Shown: piece by piece, positions 470-49,617 of the stretch
How the letters are laid out: each line of letters starts with the position of its first letter
Position numbering within the stretch: position 1 is the stretch's first letter
Assembly: GCA_951406725.2 (NCBI GenBank)
Contig: OX597821.1
Coordinates: 61,070,001 to 61,134,000 of the forward strand
Direction of reading: 5' to 3'
DNA: 64,000 nucleotides
Origin: Octopus vulgaris
Lineage: Eukaryota
Program-made: the position numbers and the translations under genes
Notes under the pieces: model-generated
The model's input: the letters and a program-made list of their open reading frames with translations, nothing else
Databases searched by the model: none
Told to the model about the DNA's origin: nothing

Positions 470-1110
470 TCATTGCAAGGCCTCCAATATAGCAGAATAA
501 GTTGATGTCCGTCCCAGAATAGCTGTCAGTTATCTCTGCAAAATTGGCTATTATGGCAGAGCAGGAAGAAAGAAGACACTGCTTCGACCAGCCAATATCA
601 AATGGAGAAAAGATTGGACAAGTGAGACGGTAGAGAGGTCACTAGCACTTTGGGACACTGTCAAATTCTCTGATGAATCCAGATTTGCTGTATTTTCTGA
701 CACTGGTCGAGTGTGGGTCTGGGGAATCAGTAACCAATATTTTCACGTGAATATATTGCAGCCAACAATGAAACGTGATGGTCTGGAGAGCAATTTGGAG
801 CAATGGTCAATCAGAAATGGTGGAGTGTGAGGGATACATAAACTCAGATAAATATGTGTCCATATTATAGAAAAATCTTCTTCCTATATCCTCCAGTGGT
901 AAAATGATTAAAGAACACTATTTATGGAAGATAGGGCGTTCTTGCACAACTAAAAGACCCAGGATTGGTTGGAAGAGAATGGCATTAAAAAGCTTCCATA
1001 GCTAAGCCAATCACCAGATATGAACCCTACTGAACACATCTGAGGCATGATGGATGGGACACTTCCTAAAAAGAAAAAGAAAGCATCCTTGAAGCCAAAT
1101 CTTACCGGAA
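470..1110 (+). mobile_element. Degenerate Tc1-family (DD34E) transposase remnant
   Basis: Manual translation across frameshifts and stops gives WDTVKFSDESRF, RVWVWG, LQPTMK, INSDKYVSIL, KTQDWLEENGI and SQSPDMNPTEHI, which are Tc1 catalytic-domain motifs. Confidence 0.85.
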
Positions 1111-1315
1111 GAAATCACTTATTATCTAGATCACCGGTCAACGTACACATAATTTAAGAAATTTGAAAAGCTGAACGCGAAACCGGTCATTTCTTCTATA
1201 CTATGTCATTGTATGAAAAAAATTTATAACATTCTTCAGACATATTGACTCAAATATATATTTTTTAACCTTTTAAAACAAGCCTTCTGTAGTTTTTTCA
1301 CTTTTTACTATTTTC

Positions 1316-1915
<600 letters not shown>

Positions 1916-2172
1916 TATATTATATTAAATTAGAGATAAAACCACTATTAAGCAAATCAAACAGTGAAAATCATAAGCCAATACATAGAAATAATGATTT
2001 TCACTGTTTGATTTTTATTTCTATGTATTGGCTTATGACTTTCACCGTTTGATTTGCTTAATAGTGGTTTTATCTCTAATTTAATATAATGTATATTTAT
2101 ACTATAACATTAGATTTAATCCTAAATCTAATTTTTCCCTGTAAGTTTGGATTTACTCCCTAATATCATTAT

Positions 2173-2180
<8 letters not shown>
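1916..2180. repeat. Fold-back (palindromic) repeat embedded in (TA)n
   Basis: Arm ATTAGAGATAAAACCACTATTAAGCAAATCAAAC...AGCCAATACATAGAAA is mirrored at ~2017-2090. A related copy lies at 33030-33215. Confidence 0.75.
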
Positions 2181-2226
<46 letters not shown>

Positions 2227-3315
2227 CTATATATGATTCCCTCTCTTTCCCTCTACCTATCAATTCATTTATGTGTAGCACACAGCAATATATTTAGTAC
2301 ATTCTTCTCATGTAGAATAGTTGTACTTAAGACGCTTCTTTCAATCAATAAAATCGGTCATTTTCCTTCTCCTCCTTCACCGTCTTTTGCTTTTTTTTTC
2401 CCTCACTGATTTTTCGCTGTCTTTTTGTTTTCGGTGACCGATTTCCAACTTCGTTTCTTAAATCTATCCAATTCCGCCCACCAACCACAACCACATATCT
2501 ACCTTGTCGTCGTCATTTCTCTTTCTCTTTTTAAACTGCTTAAACATTCACAATGGTACGTAGCATTTATCCTCATCATAATCTATTCGCTGCAAGTCTG
2601 AGACACAATTTGTTCTTAATTTATAATGGTTTCGAGTTATAAATAAAAATCTATACAAGGTTTTCAAAGACGATAGGTTTTTCAAGAAGTAAACACTTTC
2701 ATAAAGATAAGAATCTTATCTCATAAGAAAAAAATTAGGCAAAAATTCAGATATCTACATGAAATTTAATTATCAATGCAGGACTTAAATATCTTACGCG
2801 TATCTTTGGGGAAAAATTCTATTTGTAGCAATGAGATGATTTGGACTGAATCACAACTAAAATACGGAAAAGAAAAGAAAAAATCTCATTTTGTAGTTTG
2901 TCTTATTATATTTGAGTCAAACCTGTATGTATCCTTCCTTCAAATTTATATTATTTTACAGTTTCTTTTTGCGCGCAGTAAGCAATAGAAAATTCAGAAG
3001 GGACAACGGTAAAATGAATTGTATTACTGAATATCAGGAAGGTTTAAAGGCATGAAGAAAGACAAAAAAAATATAAATAAATAAAAAAGAATAAAATAGG
3101 AAAAGCGGAAACCAAAAAAGAAAAAATAAAGGCAACAAAACTGAAAGTTCTTAACTACTTAGTGAATCACAGTGAATCGTGTGTGAGTTGATTGAACGAT
3201 TAACCTTCTCTTTTGTGTTTCTAATATGAGGTTAATAGTCCAATAAAATCATATTACACGACTGTTAACTCATCTCAAAAACTGTAAACATAAATCTTTG
3301 TAGTATTTTTGTAAA

Positions 3316-3945
3316 TTCCTTCTACTTCCCTTCCTCTTCCTCCTCCTCCTCCTCCTCCTCCTCCACTTCTATGCTTCTACGCCTCACTTCCCCGCCTGCT
3401 CTGTCTCTTCTTCCATCTCTTCCACCTTCTCCCCTCCTCCGCCTCCTCTTCGTCCTCCTCTTCCTCCTCATCCTCCTCTTCCCCTACTTCTATGCTTCCA
3501 CGCCACACTTTCCCACCCTTTCTGTCTCATCTTCCATCTCTTCCGCCTCCTTCCCCTCCTCCTCTTCCTCCTCCTCCACCTCCTCCTCCCCACCTCCTCC
3601 TCCACCTCCTCCTTCCCACCTCCTCCGTCTTCTACGTCTTCCCTTACTTCTCCTCCGTTTCTTTCTCTTTCTTCTCCTCCGTCTTCTCTTCGTCATCTTC
3701 TCCATCTCCTGTTCTTCCTCCTCCTCCGCTTCATCATCTTCGTAATATCCATAGTCCCCGCCTCATCGTCTTTCTTATCGTCGTCGTCACCATCACCACC
3801 ATCACCACCACCATCATCATCATCGTCATCATCATGATAGTCACAGTCTTTATTACATCCACCGTCGTTGCCATAGTTATTATCGTCATCGTCGTCGTTG
3901 CCATCGTCCGCCTTCATCGTCTCAACCACCGCCATCGACATCATC
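3316..3945. repeat. Pyrimidine-rich low-complexity tract (CCT/CTT, then CAT/CGT) with an internal ~120-bp duplication
   Basis: CTTCTATGCTTC(T/C)ACGCC... recurs at ~3366 and ~3487. The ORFs here are Pro/Ser/Glu homopolymer artefacts. Confidence 0.85.
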
Positions 3946-15239: not shown

Positions 15240-15618
15240 TCTCTCTCTATATAAACGGCAGTTTGTCTGTGCGTGTTTCTGTGTGTCTGTTTGCTTGTAC
15301 CCTCACCCTGACCACGGCTTTCAACCGATTCTGATGAAACTTGACACACACATAGCCCAATGTCATAATTCAAAACTAACGCAGCGAAAATTTTGAAAAG
15401 TTCCCCCAGTTCTGAAAAAAATCGATAAATTCGACATGGGGTCGAGAATCAGAAACACAAACCGCAAACTGTCTAGAGGACGCAACTCCACCTTTTTTAA
15501 CTAAAAAAAAATTACCATCATTTTTTTCCATTTTTTTTATTTTTTGGCTATAACTCTCTAAAAATGCTTTATAGTTATTTTCCTTACAAACCTGAGCAAC
15601 GCCGGGCGATACTGCTAG
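15240..15618 (+). mobile_element. Non-autonomous Helitron (complete)
   Basis: A|TC 5' start, TATATAAA followed by (TGTC)-like repeats, a 3' hairpin CCTGAGCAACGCCGGG and a terminal CTAG|T. The same 3' end occurs at 19824 and 36187. Confidence 0.85.
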
Positions 15619-15966
15619 TTTATATATAAAAGTGAAGTTGTGTGTCTGTCTCCTACGATTTAGATTCCTAACTACTCCCACATTTTGCGGTGCAGTGTAA
15701 CCAAAAGCGGGTATCTTATAGTTGTGATTCATATCGAGCCCTTCCGGGTATTAGCGCGCTTCTACGATGAGTCTACGATGTAAAAAAAAAATTACCATCA
15801 TGTTTTTCCATTTTAATGCATTTTCTTCGCTATTATATAAGGGAAGTAACTCTCTAAAAATGTCTACGATGAGTCAACGATTTAAAAAAAATTTACGATA
15901 ATTTTTTTCCAATTTTAATGCATTTTTTTGCTATTTTTTGGCTATAACTCTCTGAAAATGCTTACA

Positions 15967-16368: not shown

Positions 16369-16530
16369 ATTATATATATATTCTCTCCCAATTTCGCAGT
16401 GTGTGTATGTGCATAAATAAATGTATTTACGGTAATGTATCCCATTGCTTAGGTTATAATATTTCATTAATATATGTTTTGATGAACGTCAGATCTGATA
16501 ACAAGATTGCTTTACACCATTCAAGGCCTC

Positions 16531-19500
16531 AGAGATCAAAGAGGGGTGCCGACAGAGATCAAAGGGGGTGCCGACAGAGATCAAAGAGGGGTGCCGACAG
16601 AGGTTAAAAAGGGTGCCGACAGAGATCAAAGTGGGTGCCGACAGAGATCAAAGAGGGGTGCTGACAAAGATCAAAGGGGGTGCCGACAGAGATCAAAGAG
16701 GGGTGTCGACAGAGATCAAAGAGGGGTGCCGACAGATATCAAAGGGGGTGCCGACAGAGATCAAAGAGGGGTGCCGACAGAGATCAAAGAGGGTGCCGAC
16801 AGAGATCAAAGAGGGTGCCGACAGATATCAAAGGGGGTGTACAGAGATCAAAGGGGTGCCGACAGAGATCAAAGAGGGGTGCCGACAGAGATCAAAGAGG
16901 GATGCCGACAGAGATCAAAGAGGGGTGCCGACAGAGATCAAAGAGGGATGCACAGATATCAAAGGGGGTGCCGACAGAGCTCATAGGGAGTGCCGACAGA
17001 GATCAAAGAGGGGTGCCGACAGAGATCAAAGAGGGTGCCGAAAGAGATCAAAGAGGGGTATCGACAGAGATAAAAGAGGGGTACCGACAGAGATCAAAGA
17101 GGGTACCGACAGAGATCAATAGGGGTGCCGACAGAAATCAAAGAGAGGTGCCGACAGAGATCAAAGAGGGGTGCCGACAGAGATCAAAGGGGGTGCCGAC
17201 AGAGACCAAAGAGAATGCCGACAGAGATCAAAGAGGGGTGCCGATAGAGATCAAAAAGGGTGCCGACAGAGACCAAAGGGGGTGCCGAAAGAGATCAAAG
17301 AGGGGTACCGGCAGAGATCAATGGGGGTGCCGACAGAAATCAAAGAGAGGTGCCGACAGAGATCAAAGAGGGGTGCCGACAGAGATCAAAGTGGGTGCCG
17401 ACAGAGACCAAAGAGAGTGCCGACAGAGATCAAAGAGGGGTGCCGACAGAGATCAAAAAGGGTGCCGACAGAGATCAAAGGGGGTGCCGACAGAGATCAA
17501 AGAGGGGTGCTGACAGAGATCAAAGAGGGGTGCCGACAGAGATCAAAGAGGGGTGCTGACAGAGATCAAAGAGGGTACCGACAGAGATCAAAGAGGGGTA
17601 TCGACAGAGATCAATGGGGGTGCCGACAGAAATCAATGAGAGGTGCCGACAGAGATCAAAGAGGGGTGCCGACAGAGATCAATGGGTGTGCCGACAGAGA
17701 TCAAAGAGGGTTGCCGACAGAGATCAATTGGGGTGCCGACAGAAATCAAAGAGAGGTGCCGACAGAGATCAAAGAGGGTACCGACAGAGATCAAAGAGGG
17801 GTACCGACAGAGATCAATGGGGGTGCAGACATAAAGCAATGAGAGGTGCCGACAGAGATCAAAGAGGGGTGTCGACAGAGATCAAAGGGGGTGTCGGCAG
17901 AGACCAAACAGGGTGCTGACAGAGATCAAAGAGGGATACCGACAGAGATAAAAGAGGGTGCCGACAAAGATCAAAGAGGGGTACCGACAGAGATCAAAGG
18001 GGGTGCCGACAGATATCAAAGAGGGGTACCTACAGAGATAAAAGAGGATGCCGACAGAGATCAAAGAGGGGTGCCGAAAGAGATCAAAAAGGGGTGCCGA
18101 CAGAGATCAAAGAGGGATGCCGACAGAAATCAAAGAGGGTGCCGACAGAGATCAATTGGAGTGCCGGCAGAAATCAAAGAGATGTGCCGACAGAGAGCAA
18201 AGGGGTGCCGACAGATATCAAAGGGGGTGCCGACAGAGAACAAAGAGGGTGCCGACAGATATCAAAGAGGGGTGCTGATAGAGATCAAAGGGCGTGCCGC
18301 CAGAGATCAAAGAGGGGTGCCGCCAGAGATCAAAGAGGGGTGCCGACAGGGATCAAAGAGGGGTGCCGACAGAGATCAAAGAGGGGTGCCGACAGAGATC
18401 AAAGGGGGTGCCGACAGAGATCAAAGGGGGTGCCGACAGAGATCAAAGAGGGGTGCCGACAGAGATCAAAGAGGGATGCACAGAGATCAAAGGGAGTGCC
18501 GACAGAGATCAAAGGGGGTGCCGATAGAGATCAAAGAGGCGTGCCGACAGAGATCAAAGAGGGGTGCCGATAGAGATCAAAGAAGGGTGCCGACAAGGAT
18601 CAAAGAGGGTGCCGACAGAGATCAATGGGGTGCTGACAGAGATGAAAGGGGGTGCCAACAGAGATCAAAGAGGGGTGCCGACAGAGATCAAAGGGGGTGC
18701 CGACATAGATCAAAGAGGGGTACCGACAGAGATCAAAGGGTGTGCCGACAGATACCAAAGAGGGGTACTTACAGAGATAAAAGAGGGTGCCGACAGAGAT
18801 CAAAGAGGGGTGCCGACAGAGATCAAAGGGGGTGCCGACAGAGATCAAAGAGGGTGCCGACAGAGATCAAAGATGGTGCCGACAGAAATCAAAGAGGGGT
18901 GCCGACAGAGATCAAAGGGTGTGCCGACAGAGATCAAAGGGGGTGCCGACAGAGACCAAAGAGGGTGCCGACATAGATCAAAGAGGGGTGCCGACAGATA
19001 TCAAAGGGGGTGTTGACAGAGATCAAAGAGGGTGCCGACAGAGATCAAAAAGGGGTGTCAACAGAGATCAAAGGGGTGCCGACAGAGATCAAAGAGGGGT
19101 GCCGACAGAAATCAAAGACGGGTGCCGACAGAGATCAAAGGGGGTGTACAGAGATCAAAGGGGGTGCCGACAGAGATCAAAGAGGGGTACCGACAGAGAT
19201 CAAAGAGGAGTACCGACAGAGATCAAAGAGGGATGCCGACAGAGATCAAAGAGGGGTGTCGACAGAGATCAAAGGGGGATGCACAGAGATCAAAGGGGGT
19301 GCCGACAGAGATCAAAGTGTGTGCCCACTGAGATCAAAGAGGGGTGCCGAAAGAGATCAAAGAGGGGTGCCGATAGAGATCAAAGAAGGGTGCCGACAAG
19401 GATCAAAGAGGGTGCCGACAGAGATCAATGGGGTGCCGACAGAGATCAAAGGGGGGTGCCGACAGAGATCAAAGTGGGGTGCCGACAGAGATCAAAGGGG

Positions 19501-19784
19501 GTTCCGACAGAGATCAAAGAGGGGTGCCGGGAGAGACCAAAGTGTTGCCAAAAGAGGTCAAAGAGGGGTGCCGACAGAGATCAAAGGAGGTACCGACAGA
19601 GATCAAAGGGGATGCCGACATAGTTCAAAGAGGGGTGCCGACAGAGATCAAAGAGGGGTGCCGACAGAGATCAAAGGAGGGTGCCGATAGAGATCAAAGA
19701 GGGGTGTCGAGAGATATCAAAGGGGGTGTCGACAGAGATCAAAGAGTGTGCCGAAAAAGATCCAAGAGGGTGCCGAAAGAGATC
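16531..19784 (+). repeat. Minisatellite, consensus AGAGATCAAAGAGGGGTGCCGAC (23 bp, with frequent 22-bp variants), roughly 145 units
   Basis: Head-to-tail units with no unique spacers and a strongly purine-rich plus strand. Unit count estimated from length. Confidence 0.97.
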
Positions 19785-19898
19785 TTCCCTTACAAACCCG
19801 AGCAACGCCGGGCGATACTGCTAGTGTATAATATACATGAATACATACCTACGGTCATATGTATGTATGTGTGTATATATGTATGTATGCATGTATGT

Positions 19899-20335
19899 AT
19901 GTGGCGGTCCTATAAAAGACGGTGTTACTGTTGATTAAGCCCAAGGAAAACATCTTTTCCAGCTGGCCATCGACACAGTCTGTGTCCGTATAGCTTTTGC
20001 AAGGGAGGTCATCGCCCCCATCTCCAACTTTACTTGATACTCACAGACCATAGTTTCTGGTTGGTTACCTGTCCTCAGTGTGAGATAATCATTGGCTGTT
20101 GATGAAATCTTTCGCCACACGAAAACTCTATGTATTCTTTAAGCGACACACAGTCGCTTATCTCGTATAGAGAAAAACGATTTATTTTTAATCTCTCAGA
20201 GTGAGGTGTAGAGTAACTGTACCCAATAGTAAAGTTTATTTATCAACAAAATGTGGCGGTCCTATAAAGGGCGATGTTACTGTTGTTTAAGCCCCAGGAA
20301 AGCATCTTCTCCAGCTGGCTATCAACGACACACAG
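19899..20335 (-). mobile_element. Diverged copy of the ~350-bp hammerhead-containing tandem unit (putative non-LTR retrozyme), ~1.25 units
   Basis: ATGTGGCGGTCCTATAAA recurs at 19899 and 20251 (period 352). The reverse complement aligns by eye over the whole unit with 48069-48698. Confidence 0.8.
20035..20091 (-). ncRNA. Type I hammerhead ribozyme (canonical core, decayed stem II)
   Basis: Minus strand UGAU-UAU-CUCACA CUGAGGA CAGGUAACCAACCA GAAAC UAUG GUC UGUGAG-U-AUCA. Stem I is a perfect 6-bp CUCACA/UGUGAG, followed by the CUGANGA and GAAA boxes and a GUC triplet. Confidence 0.8.
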
Positions 20336-35672: not shown

Positions 35673-36187
35673 TCTATATATATAAAACTGTAGTTGTGTG
35701 AGTGTCTGTCTCCTACGATTTAGATTCCTAACTCCTCCCACATTTTGCGGTGCAGTTTAACCAAATTCGGGTATCTTATAGTCGTGATTAATATCAAGAC
35801 CGTCTGGCTATTAGCGCGCGTCTACGATGAGTCTACGATTTTAAAAATAATTTAACATCATTTTTTATTCCATTTTAATGCATAATTTTTCGTGTGTCGA
35901 TGGCGGCGGAGTTGGCGTCCACGCTCACGCCTGCACCTGTGTTTGCTTCTCCCCCTTCTTCCCTCCCTCGTGAAGCTGTGGGGAAGGGAGTTTAAGGAAA
36001 TCAACGTCGTAATGCGTTGTCAAGGAGACCAGCGTTCTTTTAGAACAACGACTTCATGGCTTGAAGACACCAAAACAGAAATGGCTAAGAAAGCCCGAAT
36101 TGGCATCTATAAAGGAAGTAACTCTCTAAAAATGCTTATATAGTTATTTCCCTTACAAACCCGAGCAACGCCGGGCGATACTGCTAG
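35673..36187 (+). mobile_element. Non-autonomous Helitron (complete)
   Basis: A|TCTATATATATAAAA start, CCCGAGCAACGCCGGG hairpin and CTAG|T end, with no TSD. The 5' part closely matches 15619 onward. Confidence 0.9.
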
Positions 36188-36764
36188 TAATTTATAAAAA
36201 GGTAGTTTAATTTAATGAGAATACCGATTGCTGCTTGAAATTCAAACTAGATATTACCAATTTATTTCCCTGCAAACCCAGGGACCTCCTATTTACATGT
36301 AGGATACTAACTTATGCATCGTTTGCCTGGAAGTATTTGAAAGTCTTCCCATCTAGGTGCAAACATGTTAAAGCTTGTTCTTCTCTACTGTTAAGGAACT
36401 GGTGCTTAGCTGTAAAAATATGGAATATTTTCTCTATGCACGAATTTTACCTTTTTCTTCCTGTTGCATGAGGTGCAGCGACGCTAATTATTTCCCATTC
36501 TATACTAAACCCTGCGTTTCTATCTGTATGGGACCAGACGAACGCACTTAAGCTAATGTTCTGCATTTCGCCATAGTGTTCTGAATTTCCCCACAACCTT
36601 TAAACGAAATTAAACGGTTTGTTAGTCTCGCCTTAAAGTTTGTCGAGCATTCACCGATATAGAAGTGCGTCTTATGACGTAATCTTACTTCGATTTACTA
36701 ATTTTTTCCTCATTTTATGTAACAGTCCGGCCAAAGGCTCCTTTACTTAATGACCTATGAGCTA

Positions 36765-47470: not shown

Positions 47471-48085
47471 AAGATATGTAAATTTATATAACACATACAT
47501 ATGTGTATATGTTTATATAAATAATTCACGCTGCTGTAATCTTATGAAAGCTACGCAATTAACAGTGAAGAAATCATTGACTACTATTTTCACTACTTTG
47601 CCAGAGAAAATTCCTGAACCATCCTCTTCAGTTTTGGTGCTAACGACAGAAATTAGTCCTGTAATTATCTATCCGTGAAGAACGGTTTACAATAGAGAAT
47701 TCCAAATCAAAAGCTTTACTCCGAGAAAAAAAATTCTTATTATCATTTCCTGAAACACTAAATACGGGTGTAGTGTAATTTGTATTGGTCTGCTGATGAT
47801 ACCAAAAGTTAATTTAACCATTCTGAGTTTCCCTCTGCAGTATAAGTGCAGTGTGGTCAAATTTATAGTTTACTATTTGTTTTAGGTTGATATATGTAAA
47901 AATAGTAGTTCTGATAAGACTGGACAACAGTTATATAGTGAAAGAAGTGTGAATTAACATATTTGGTATTGTATATTAGCCACTACAAAGGAACAAAATG
48001 TTGACTTAGCGTTAGGAAGGAGAACAAGATATTTTAGAACTTTAACAGCGTTTGGTTTATTGTCACCCCCCTTTCATCGTAATCT

Positions 48086-48146
48086 GGTGATTACCGCCCG
48101 TTGACAAGAGGCAACAACCTCGAAACTGCAGTCCGTGCGTATCACT
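48086..48146 (+). ncRNA. Type I hammerhead ribozyme, U3-A8 core variant
   Basis: GUGAU-UAC-CGCCCG UUGACAA GAGG-CAACAA-CCUC GAAAC-UGCA-GUC CGUGCG-U-AUCAC. Stems I, II and III all pair. Predicted cleavage is after 48133. Confidence 0.88.
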
Positions 48147-48435
48147 TAGGCTTACGAGAAAGGGATGGCCTCCCTTTGCAAATACCATAAGGGCACAGAT
48201 AGTGTGCCTATAGCCAGCTGGAGACGATGGTCTCCTGGGGCTAAAAGCTACAGTACCCCCCTTTGCGGTTAGCCATATTGAGATGGCTATTATACTTTAC
48301 ATTGTCGAGCGGTTATTGTTTACATCTCGTTCAGAGATTTAATAATGCTTGCAGACAGTTTTTTCGAAATCAGTGACGGAAGTTACTAGAAAAACACATA
48401 TATTTGCATACAGGCTTTCCCTTTCATCGTAATCC

Positions 48436-48496
48436 GGTGATTACCGCCCGTTGATAAGAGGCAACAACCTCGAAACTGCAGTCCGTGCGTATCACT
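48436..48496 (+). ncRNA. Type I hammerhead ribozyme, U3-A8 core variant (second copy)
   Basis: Identical to the first except the core reads UUGAUAA, a change at the free N7 position. Predicted cleavage is after 48483. Confidence 0.88.
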
Positions 48497-49617
48497 TAGG
48501 CTTACGAGAAAGGGATGGCCTCCCTTTGCAAATACCATAAGGGCACAGATAGTGTGCCTAAAGCCAGCTGGAGACGATGATCTCCTGGGGCTAAAAGCTA
48601 CAGTAACCCCCCTATGTGGTTAGCCATATTGAGATGGCTATTATACTTTACATTGTCGAGCGGTTACTGTTTACATCTCGTTCAGAGATTTAATAATGAT
48701 TTTTTCTTTGTTTATCTCAAAATACAAGTTAAAAAGGTATACTGATTAACATTCCTCAAATATTTGATTAAGCATTAAGCAACAAATAACTAGAATATCT
48801 ATGTACATCAAATTGGATTAGAATGACTTTCCTTAGCATCTCAATATTTACTGCGTTGATGCCGCCAAAATGACGTTCGTAGTTTAATAAGAAAATACAT
48901 TAATTTTTGTTTAAGATTTCAGTTCAATGTGTGAGTGATTATATTAGTGTATCAAGTGATTGAACGATTTAGTAGGTGGATTAGGAAGATAAAACCAATA
49001 CTTAGTCATTAAGCATCTACAGTTTATATACTGTTGTTATTAAAGAAATCAGTTCTGTTTAGAAGAGAGCAGTATGATAAATTAGATGTGCGTTCATTCT
49101 GACGTCTAGGTCAGGATGCAATTATATTAATATGACATTTACATATATGCAAGTGAAATACGTGTGCAAAGCGAGAGTTCATACAAATAATGAATAATAA
49201 TGTAAACAAAAAGAAGGGTAGACATCTACATACATACATTACACATATACACAAACATATATAGGTTATCACATACATATAGGCTATCATTTATTTATAC
49301 GCACATGTTCTATTTAATATTCACATGCATAATTGCTGTTGTTTATCCCCAAATGAATCATGATTGACCAAACATAGGATGAAATATATTTACACCGTTA
49401 CCATTTATTATATTTCTGAAGGTATCAATGAATACATTATCTCCAAGATAGTGGGGGGGGGGGGGTGATGTGAAGGAGGAAGATTTGTCATCTCTATCTA
49501 ACAGATCAACTAACAATTCTACATGACTTCTACAATCAATATTAATGTCTTTATAAAGACCGGAAAGTTGAAAGATGTATGCACAATCATTTGAATCGGA
49601 ATTCCAGTTATATAAAT

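Follow-up and report, generated by a model that had tools for sequence, protein, structure and literature searches.

Retrozyme copies in the window

The window analysed here is a stretch of 64,000 nucleotides of Octopus vulgaris DNA. It contains a family-A retrozyme insertion on the forward strand and a family-B copy on the reverse strand, with the following features.

48069..48701, + strand: family-A retrozyme insertion, 1.8 units of ~350 nt, 5'-truncated, with the long (L) 3' end
48088..48144, + strand: type I hammerhead, copy 1, core UUGACAA at 48101-48107 (U3/A8 variant), placed by sequence and helix map
48125-48132, + strand: palindromic stem III of hammerhead copy 1; predicted cut after 48133
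48159..48177, + strand: hairpin 1 (H1), an alternative fold predicted for nascent or cleaved RNA; rod instead in the full monomer
48192..48208, + strand: H2 hairpin (copy 2 at 48542-48558); covaries
48212..48242, + strand: H3 (copy 2 at 48562-48592), with outer stem, internal loop and inner stem 48220-48235; the inner stem covaries
48251..48318, + strand: long-range helix P6, copy 1; private changes damage both strands
48601..48669, + strand: intact P6, 48601-48607 pairing with 48663-48669; encloses H4, H5 and the S end
48271..48288, + strand: H5 hairpin, hairpin 4 of the original prediction (copy 2 at 48622-48639), within the P6 loop
48302-48303, + strand: short (S) insertion end (copy 2 at 48653-48654), with H5 directly 5' of it
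48324..48338, + strand: H6 hairpin in the 'tail' (copy 2 at 48675-48689); sequence nearly invariant
48369..48387, + strand: U2-promoter-like motif, sharing sequence with the 5' strand of hairpin H7 (48372-48387); transcription predicted to start near 48426
48401..48425, + strand: rod 5' strands, pairing with 48508-48535
48438..48494, + strand: type I hammerhead, copy 2, core UUGAUAA; predicted cut after 48483
19886..20335, - strand: family-B retrozyme copy, 1.3 units, 89% identical to the family-B consensus
Parts of the family-B copy, - strand: hammerhead 20040-20084 (core CUGAGGA), H2 19972-19986, H3 19945-19960

The insertion at 48069-48701 matches itself at 96.8% over 283 nt and agrees with the family-A consensus at 613 of 632 positions. 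A sequence check found all six hairpin stretches quoted by the original prediction in place, and its four hairpins were confirmed by coordinates. The stretches behind its paired substitutions between 48150..48295 and 19945-19986 were in place as well, and the two loci are homologous (~69% over 171-192 nt, E ~1e-11); two loci alone are insufficient to show significant covariation. The prediction did not contain P6 (48601-48607/48663-48669), H6, H7 or the rod.

At gathering scores, no Rfam model matched anywhere in the 64-kb window. The second hammerhead (48438..48494) was hit by Hammerhead_HH9 with 34.6 bits (E 8.1e-07), under the gathering score of 52, and the family-M ribozyme by Hammerhead_1 with E 5e-06, likewise under the gathering score. 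The family-B ribozyme had no Rfam match at E<=1, and that of family C had none either. A likeness to the RT-7 RNA (RF03028) was rejected as chance level: the gathering score is 116.8, the match reached 12.1 bits, and families C and M lacked it.

No clear target-site duplication was found at 48069-48701, and no empty-site joint for it was present among the assembled contigs of sequencing runs. The right junction was bridged by contigs of runs labelled organisms A and C, and the left by one labelled D. A 23-bp minisatellite of 145 copies (16530-19784) adjoins the family-B copy.

Families and abundance

Genome searches, together with searches of the flanks of the matches, yielded 11 families (A-F, H, I, J, K and M) with full units of 349-365 nt and a mean pairwise identity of 56%. 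The consensuses were built from 25-95 matching segments each, except those of H (9), M (4) and J (3). The type I hammerhead core and stems are present in all 11 consensuses, and the ~350-nt unit is too short to encode a reverse transcriptase (RT). Judged by its sequence, the insertion at 48069-48701 is a member of a new superfamily within a known class, the metazoan non-LTR retrozymes.

The first-look search returned 514-3587 candidates per family in the eight families searched, and 18 arbitrary 10-kb stretches contained two loci. Tens of thousands of genomic loci are plausible, within loose bounds. Segments longer than one unit made up 90 of 307, and one locus (L061) is an array of about ten units, flanked by a possible AT-rich 12-mer that was spotted by eye. 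The unit-to-unit joint is identical in a circle and in tandem DNA.

Perfectly palindromic stem III sequences, six different ones, occur in 8 of 11 consensuses, as expected if the ribozymes cleave as dimers. Families F and I have longer ordinary stems, and family A is polymorphic (29 G, 27 A). A stem I bulge (UAC or UGU) divides the families in the same way as the base closing the H3 loop, with B, E, I, K and M against the rest (alignment columns 48, 121, 122 and 268; E about 3-4, non-significant). A tertiary contact, recombination and shared descent are candidate causes of this split. Further hammerhead-like elements outside the 11 families occur at L049:648-833 and near position 4850 of L190.

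Conservation of the fold across families

The consensus fold, computed on a sequence-only MAFFT alignment, reached -56.0 kcal/mol against -2.1 +/- 1.9 in 40 column shuffles, with a double change in 40 of 56 pairs against a shuffle mean of 2.4. The part 3' of the ribozyme arm alone gave -36.9 kcal/mol against -2.4 +/- 1.8 (200 column shuffles). The window's own unit folded with z = -5.4, and none of 100 shuffles was as good. Outside the ribozyme, 398 of 428 cells of the 39 pairs were paired and 25 pairs showed a double change; relative to family A, 68 of the 73 double changes at these pairs preserved pairing.

For the covariation statistics we used two levels. The per-pair test, our own R-scape-like implementation (G-test and RNAalifold-type score, tree nulls, 11 sequences), found no column pair out of 56,953 at E<0.05; the best, at E 0.10, lies in ribozyme stem I. 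As this positive control fails too, the per-pair test is underpowered with 11 families. In the helix scan, all possible 5-pair helices were compared with the best helix of each null alignment over 200 column permutations. Stem I, outer stem I, inner H3 and P6 reached p = 0.005, H2 p = 0.010 and H7 p = 0.015; each of these helices also gave p 0.010 against a tree-simulated null (100 simulations). Outer H3 (p = 0.85) and H5 (p = 0.70) were non-significant across the 11 families, and H1 and H6 fall outside the helices listed by the scan. The deep-alignment check that the original prediction had named is split: the helix level is significant, the strict per-pair level is empty, and 11 families are too few for it.

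The single helices can be read against this background. Hairpin 2 (48192-48208) covaries as had been predicted, with 66 of 66 cells paired and a double change in four of six pairs. For hairpin 3 (48220-48235), the inner stem stands, with 63 of 66 cells paired and a double change in five of six pairs (outer stem, 42 of 44 cells); the predicted closing C-G occurs in only 2 of 55 family-A matches, the other 53 having a C.A mismatch at this position. The GAUG loop, described as retained, is longer or altered in families C, D, F, K and M. P6 was paired in 83 of 87 cells, with a double change in seven of eight pairs. Hairpin 4 (H5) is paired in 55 of 66 cells (family F is misaligned), mostly through sequence conservation. 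The covariation claimed for stem I is found at the helix level; its best pair stays at the E value given above, and the family-A stem I has a C.U mismatch.

Additional sequences behaved in the same way. In eight fragments outside the alignment, some of them close to included families, 156 of 187 cells were paired against 33-45% when the fragments were slid. Ten real genomic copies, one per family except K, were 90.2% paired with a double change in 20 of 37 pairs, and none of 500 shuffles was as high, in a control that ignores relatedness.

As read from the family consensuses, the non-ribozyme arms are maintained by compensatory changes across 11 diverged families, which are interrelated and all come from one genome. 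The idea of a branched fold under selection is upheld by the energy of the part 3' of the ribozyme arm and by the four non-ribozyme helices (H2, inner H3, P6 and H7) that pass the helix test; its extension to the whole monomer leaves H5, H6 and outer H3 without significant covariation. 'Whole monomer' is overstated also because hairpin 1 forms in an alternative fold and because H7 coincides in part with a promoter-like DNA motif.

The conservation holds among family consensuses, not among individual loci. This weighs on the possibility that the fold is kept by host-level selection after co-option. Retrozyme circles are abundant in other animals (PMC7229834), but the families turn over, with copies from ~80% to 99% alike, and single loci carry helix-breaking changes, such as those in P6 copy 1 at 48251..48318. 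We give host co-option the slightest chance among the explanations considered.

Hairpin 1 and the rod

The original prediction had counted hairpin 1 (48159-48177) in the monomer fold. This placement was rejected, since its probability was 0.0 in 11 of 11 full monomers. There, the hairpin 1 strands are predicted to pair with upstream sequence in a 35-44-bp rod with the ribozyme at its tip. When the 3' cleavage product alone was folded, hairpin 1 appeared at >=0.7 in 9 of 11 families, and folding of transcripts that begin at the predicted start gave it in 7 of 11. Treated as a conserved alternative, hairpin 1 had shuffle p values of 0.01-0.74 per family and 0.0006 combined, the families being related and the shuffle destroying G-runs that the rod requires. 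Hairpin 1 may be explained by the order of synthesis, because a transcript from the predicted start would lack the rod 5' strands until the next unit is made.

The rod is out of register between families, and its support therefore comes from per-family folding and not from the column test. Only its pairing is constrained; the sequence varies freely. In family A, one rod pair is C-G in 26 and U-A in 10 of 38 copies, a switch that was probably one event.

Alternatively, the fold may be kept for ligation, nuclease resistance or circle trafficking, with the RT reading only brief local signals at either end. Strong self-pairing is predicted for each of the 11 circles (z -5.1 to -11.0, 30 shuffles each), axolotl and mussel monomers are circularised by RtcB (PMC7229834), and a rod that needs pairing with any sequence would suit such a role. 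Stability alone, however, does not demand the same branch order, the H3 internal loop whose unpaired bases are invariant and the same across families, or a P6 that surrounds the S end in every family. We consider a pure circle function unlikely as the reason for the conserved arms, and prefer their recognition by an RT.

U2-like promoter motif

In 18 of 20 U2 loci, AT(C/T)AGT was spotted by eye 57-61 nt before +1. The two remaining copies (L345 and L352) have no promoter motif, and their upstream sequence is unrelated and the same in both. A matrix was made from seven distinct 18-mers, with the motif chosen by eye and post hoc; among ~710 positions, it put the H7 5'-strand site first in 8 of 11 families and second or third in the other three. 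The motif at the H7 site lies 54-60 nt before a conserved purine-(T/G)-C. An unaligned U2 promoter matrix found nothing. We think it quite probable, on a post hoc match, that the H7 site is an internal snRNA-type promoter; snRNA promoter use has been reported for newt satellite 2 (PMC2220036).

The overlap of this motif with H7 means that part of the unit's conservation is probably at the DNA level. In a broader form, promoter elements and hairpin-guided repair of inverted repeats would imitate covariation throughout. The match of the H7 5' strand to the U2 upstream motif agrees with this, as does H6, a nearly invariant inverted repeat. By contrast, P6 pairs across ~65 nt and around two other hairpins, and the H7 3' strand follows the changes of the 5' strand. 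G-U outnumbers A-C (18 vs 7, p 0.02), which favours the ribozyme strand, and in all 11 families the sense strand gives a better fold than its complement. The broader DNA-level explanation is accordingly very unlikely in our estimate.

At the locus itself, 48069-48701 is predicted to be unable to yield a full monomer from its own promoter, because it has one promoter-like motif followed by one ribozyme only.

Insertion ends

The free 3' ends of the copies are concentrated at two sites. From 284 ends, 119 fell in the S window and 122 in the L window (241 together), and 43 lay elsewhere; as copies were gathered by core similarity, ends upstream of S are under-sampled. S lies 3' of H5 within the P6 loop, and L just past H6, beyond P6, at a spacing of 44-63 nt in the six families measured. 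At the ribozyme cut site we found only 2 of the 284 free 3' ends and 4 of 302 5' ends. The ends adjoin (TA)n in 134 of 284 cases and are not followed by an element-specific tail repeat.

Inverted insertions with outward-facing 3' ends accounted for 73 of 212. Eighteen of these were set aside due to one unclassified end, and among the remaining 55, 51 combined S with L, two were L+L and two S+S (p 2e-11). The S+L combination was found in 10 of 11 families. PLE insertions are described as carrying a tail at a single end, as having inverted copies truncated at the 5' end, and as targeting microsatellites (PMC8557442). By analogy, the two 3' ends and the inverted S+L pairs match the Penelope 'tail' footprint. 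The suggestion that the fold serves RT recognition gains support here, insofar as the insertion ends suggest it.

Candidate partner and proposed mechanism

Four PLE groups with C-terminal GIY-YIG-like domains were examined, in a genome that has more PLE families than were sampled. Their 3' repeats contain hammerhead-like motifs without the retrozyme core. Matches of the retrozyme profile in PLE loci were considered as a shared repeat and rejected, as they were separate retrozyme insertions. One young PLE family (L260-L269, L278 and L279) has intact 781-aa RT and GIY-YIG frames; its 3' repeat contains several repeats of CCAAT/TGACG-type boxes together with a minimal hammerhead-like motif whose core is of the U3/A8 type. 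An abundant PLE-like family (L310-L339; 17,047 first-look candidates) has two or more 3' ends and a hammerhead-like motif in which stem II is long.

Since none of the groups examined shares the core, the link to PLEs comes from the insertion footprint by itself. A LINE-type RT could mobilise the element instead, in the manner of a SINE with a 3' stem-loop; LINEs recognise stem-loops, and the missing partner among the four PLE groups would fit. The two fixed 3' ends and the S+L inverted pairs nevertheless match the PLE features of tail and inverted copies (PMC8557442), and no element-specific tail repeat follows the ends, which leaves LINE mobilisation highly improbable.

Our favoured reading, held as likely with some reserve, is that the paired arms of this non-coding unit form the binding and start site for a PLE reverse transcriptase. 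Binding is placed by the nearness of the helices to the insertion ends, and nearness does not show binding. In the proposed cycle, the internal snRNA-type promoter would start a transcript ~58 nt before the first cut, and two hammerhead cuts would free a monomer. Hairpin 1 would be the fold of its segment before the rod partner exists, and the 35-44-bp rod would then keep the monomer ends side by side so that ligation could close the circle. A PLE protein would bind the H2-H3-P6-H6 domain, cut AT-rich DNA and prime both target strands, one per fixed site (S and L); copying that runs past the ribozyme site would give tandem copies. An uncut multimer may be the template in place of the circle, because hammerhead cleavage is dispensable for insertion in the system of PMC11167929.

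A more specific version is possible but doubtful in our judgement. Here, H2-H3-P6-H6 would be a self-contained element recruiting a dimeric Penelope RT-endonuclease, with its two active sites at two fixed points of a single circular RNA. The unit of 350 nt would also contain an snRNA promoter as well as a switch from hairpin to rod by which the circle is closed.

Comparison with known systems

The metazoan non-LTR retrozymes of PMC7229834 likewise consist of non-coding units, 150-450 bp long and arranged in tandem, that each contain a single type I hammerhead; the mussel repeats measure 350-390 bp. Stem III is short or palindromic as in the axolotl motifs, which cleave better as dimers (PMC7229834). 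A highly self-paired prediction and PLEs as the proposed mobiliser are also shared. That study demonstrated cleavage and circles, whereas the octopus units are known from DNA and their cleavage is predicted; it gave single-sequence folds, in contrast to the fold common to families described here. Its main text does not mention 'covariation', 'tail', 'inverted' or 'cephalopod'.

Vertebrate retrozymes have been presented as non-autonomous PLE derivatives (10.64898/2026.07.22.740005), with PLE co-occurrence and with monomers, dimers and arrays as in octopus. In Xenopus, 24 of 57 families match known elements, mostly PLE terminal repeats, whereas the octopus families matched none in the four PLE groups. 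In the parts of that main text covered here, insertion ends and shared structure are unmapped.

In PAc, the Poseidon PLE of Anolis, reverse transcription begins downstream of the hammerhead at two internal positions, and these define the tail; the purified protein requires an RNA that includes the ORF's first 172 nt (PMC11167929). PAc resembles the octopus retrozymes in its AT-rich targets and in both strands being cut and extended. It differs in encoding RT and GIY-YIG and in having the start region within the ORF, and its tails measure 30-40 bp against the 44-63 nt between S and L. In the text covered, its RNA fold comes without a covariation test. Newt satellite 2 (PMC2220036) also joins a hammerhead repeat with an internal snRNA-type promoter; the octopus promoter is a motif match only.

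In the open literature, as covered by titles and the starts of abstracts, no description of this fold was found; supplementary files of PMC7229834 and the 2026 preprint, together with a 1993 paper on conserved domains of salamander satellite 2, may bear on it. The element class is known, and the helix-level structure map tied to two insertion ends is the addition made here. The map bears on how a borrowed RT recognises retrozymes and on the RNA feature to which a PLE protein binds. In the retrozyme papers, the PLE link is drawn from co-occurrence and from the similarity of terminal repeats (PMC7229834; 10.64898/2026.07.22.740005), and the in vitro study narrows RT recognition to a region only (PMC11167929). 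The 11 natural variants with compensatory pairs provide a structure model tied to two mapped start sites. If the more specific version, with a dimeric RT-endonuclease, is true, no earlier template-recognition structure for the RT of a telomerase-related retroelement would have been defined phylogenetically.

A repeat sharing a family-A piece

In the contigs of runs considered as possible RNA, read depth is uneven and follows that of the large genomic-type runs, with a peak at 48254-48301, a piece shared with another repeat. This repeat has a GC-rich hairpin and a CTAG end, which we take to be a Helitron-like 3' end, and occurs in the window at 15555-15619, 19786-19826 and 36123-36190 and elsewhere at L106:1303-1430 and in L117. 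The depth over 48254-48301 is inflated because one subfamily of the repeat carries this family-A piece, ~60 nt long and stopping exactly at the S end.
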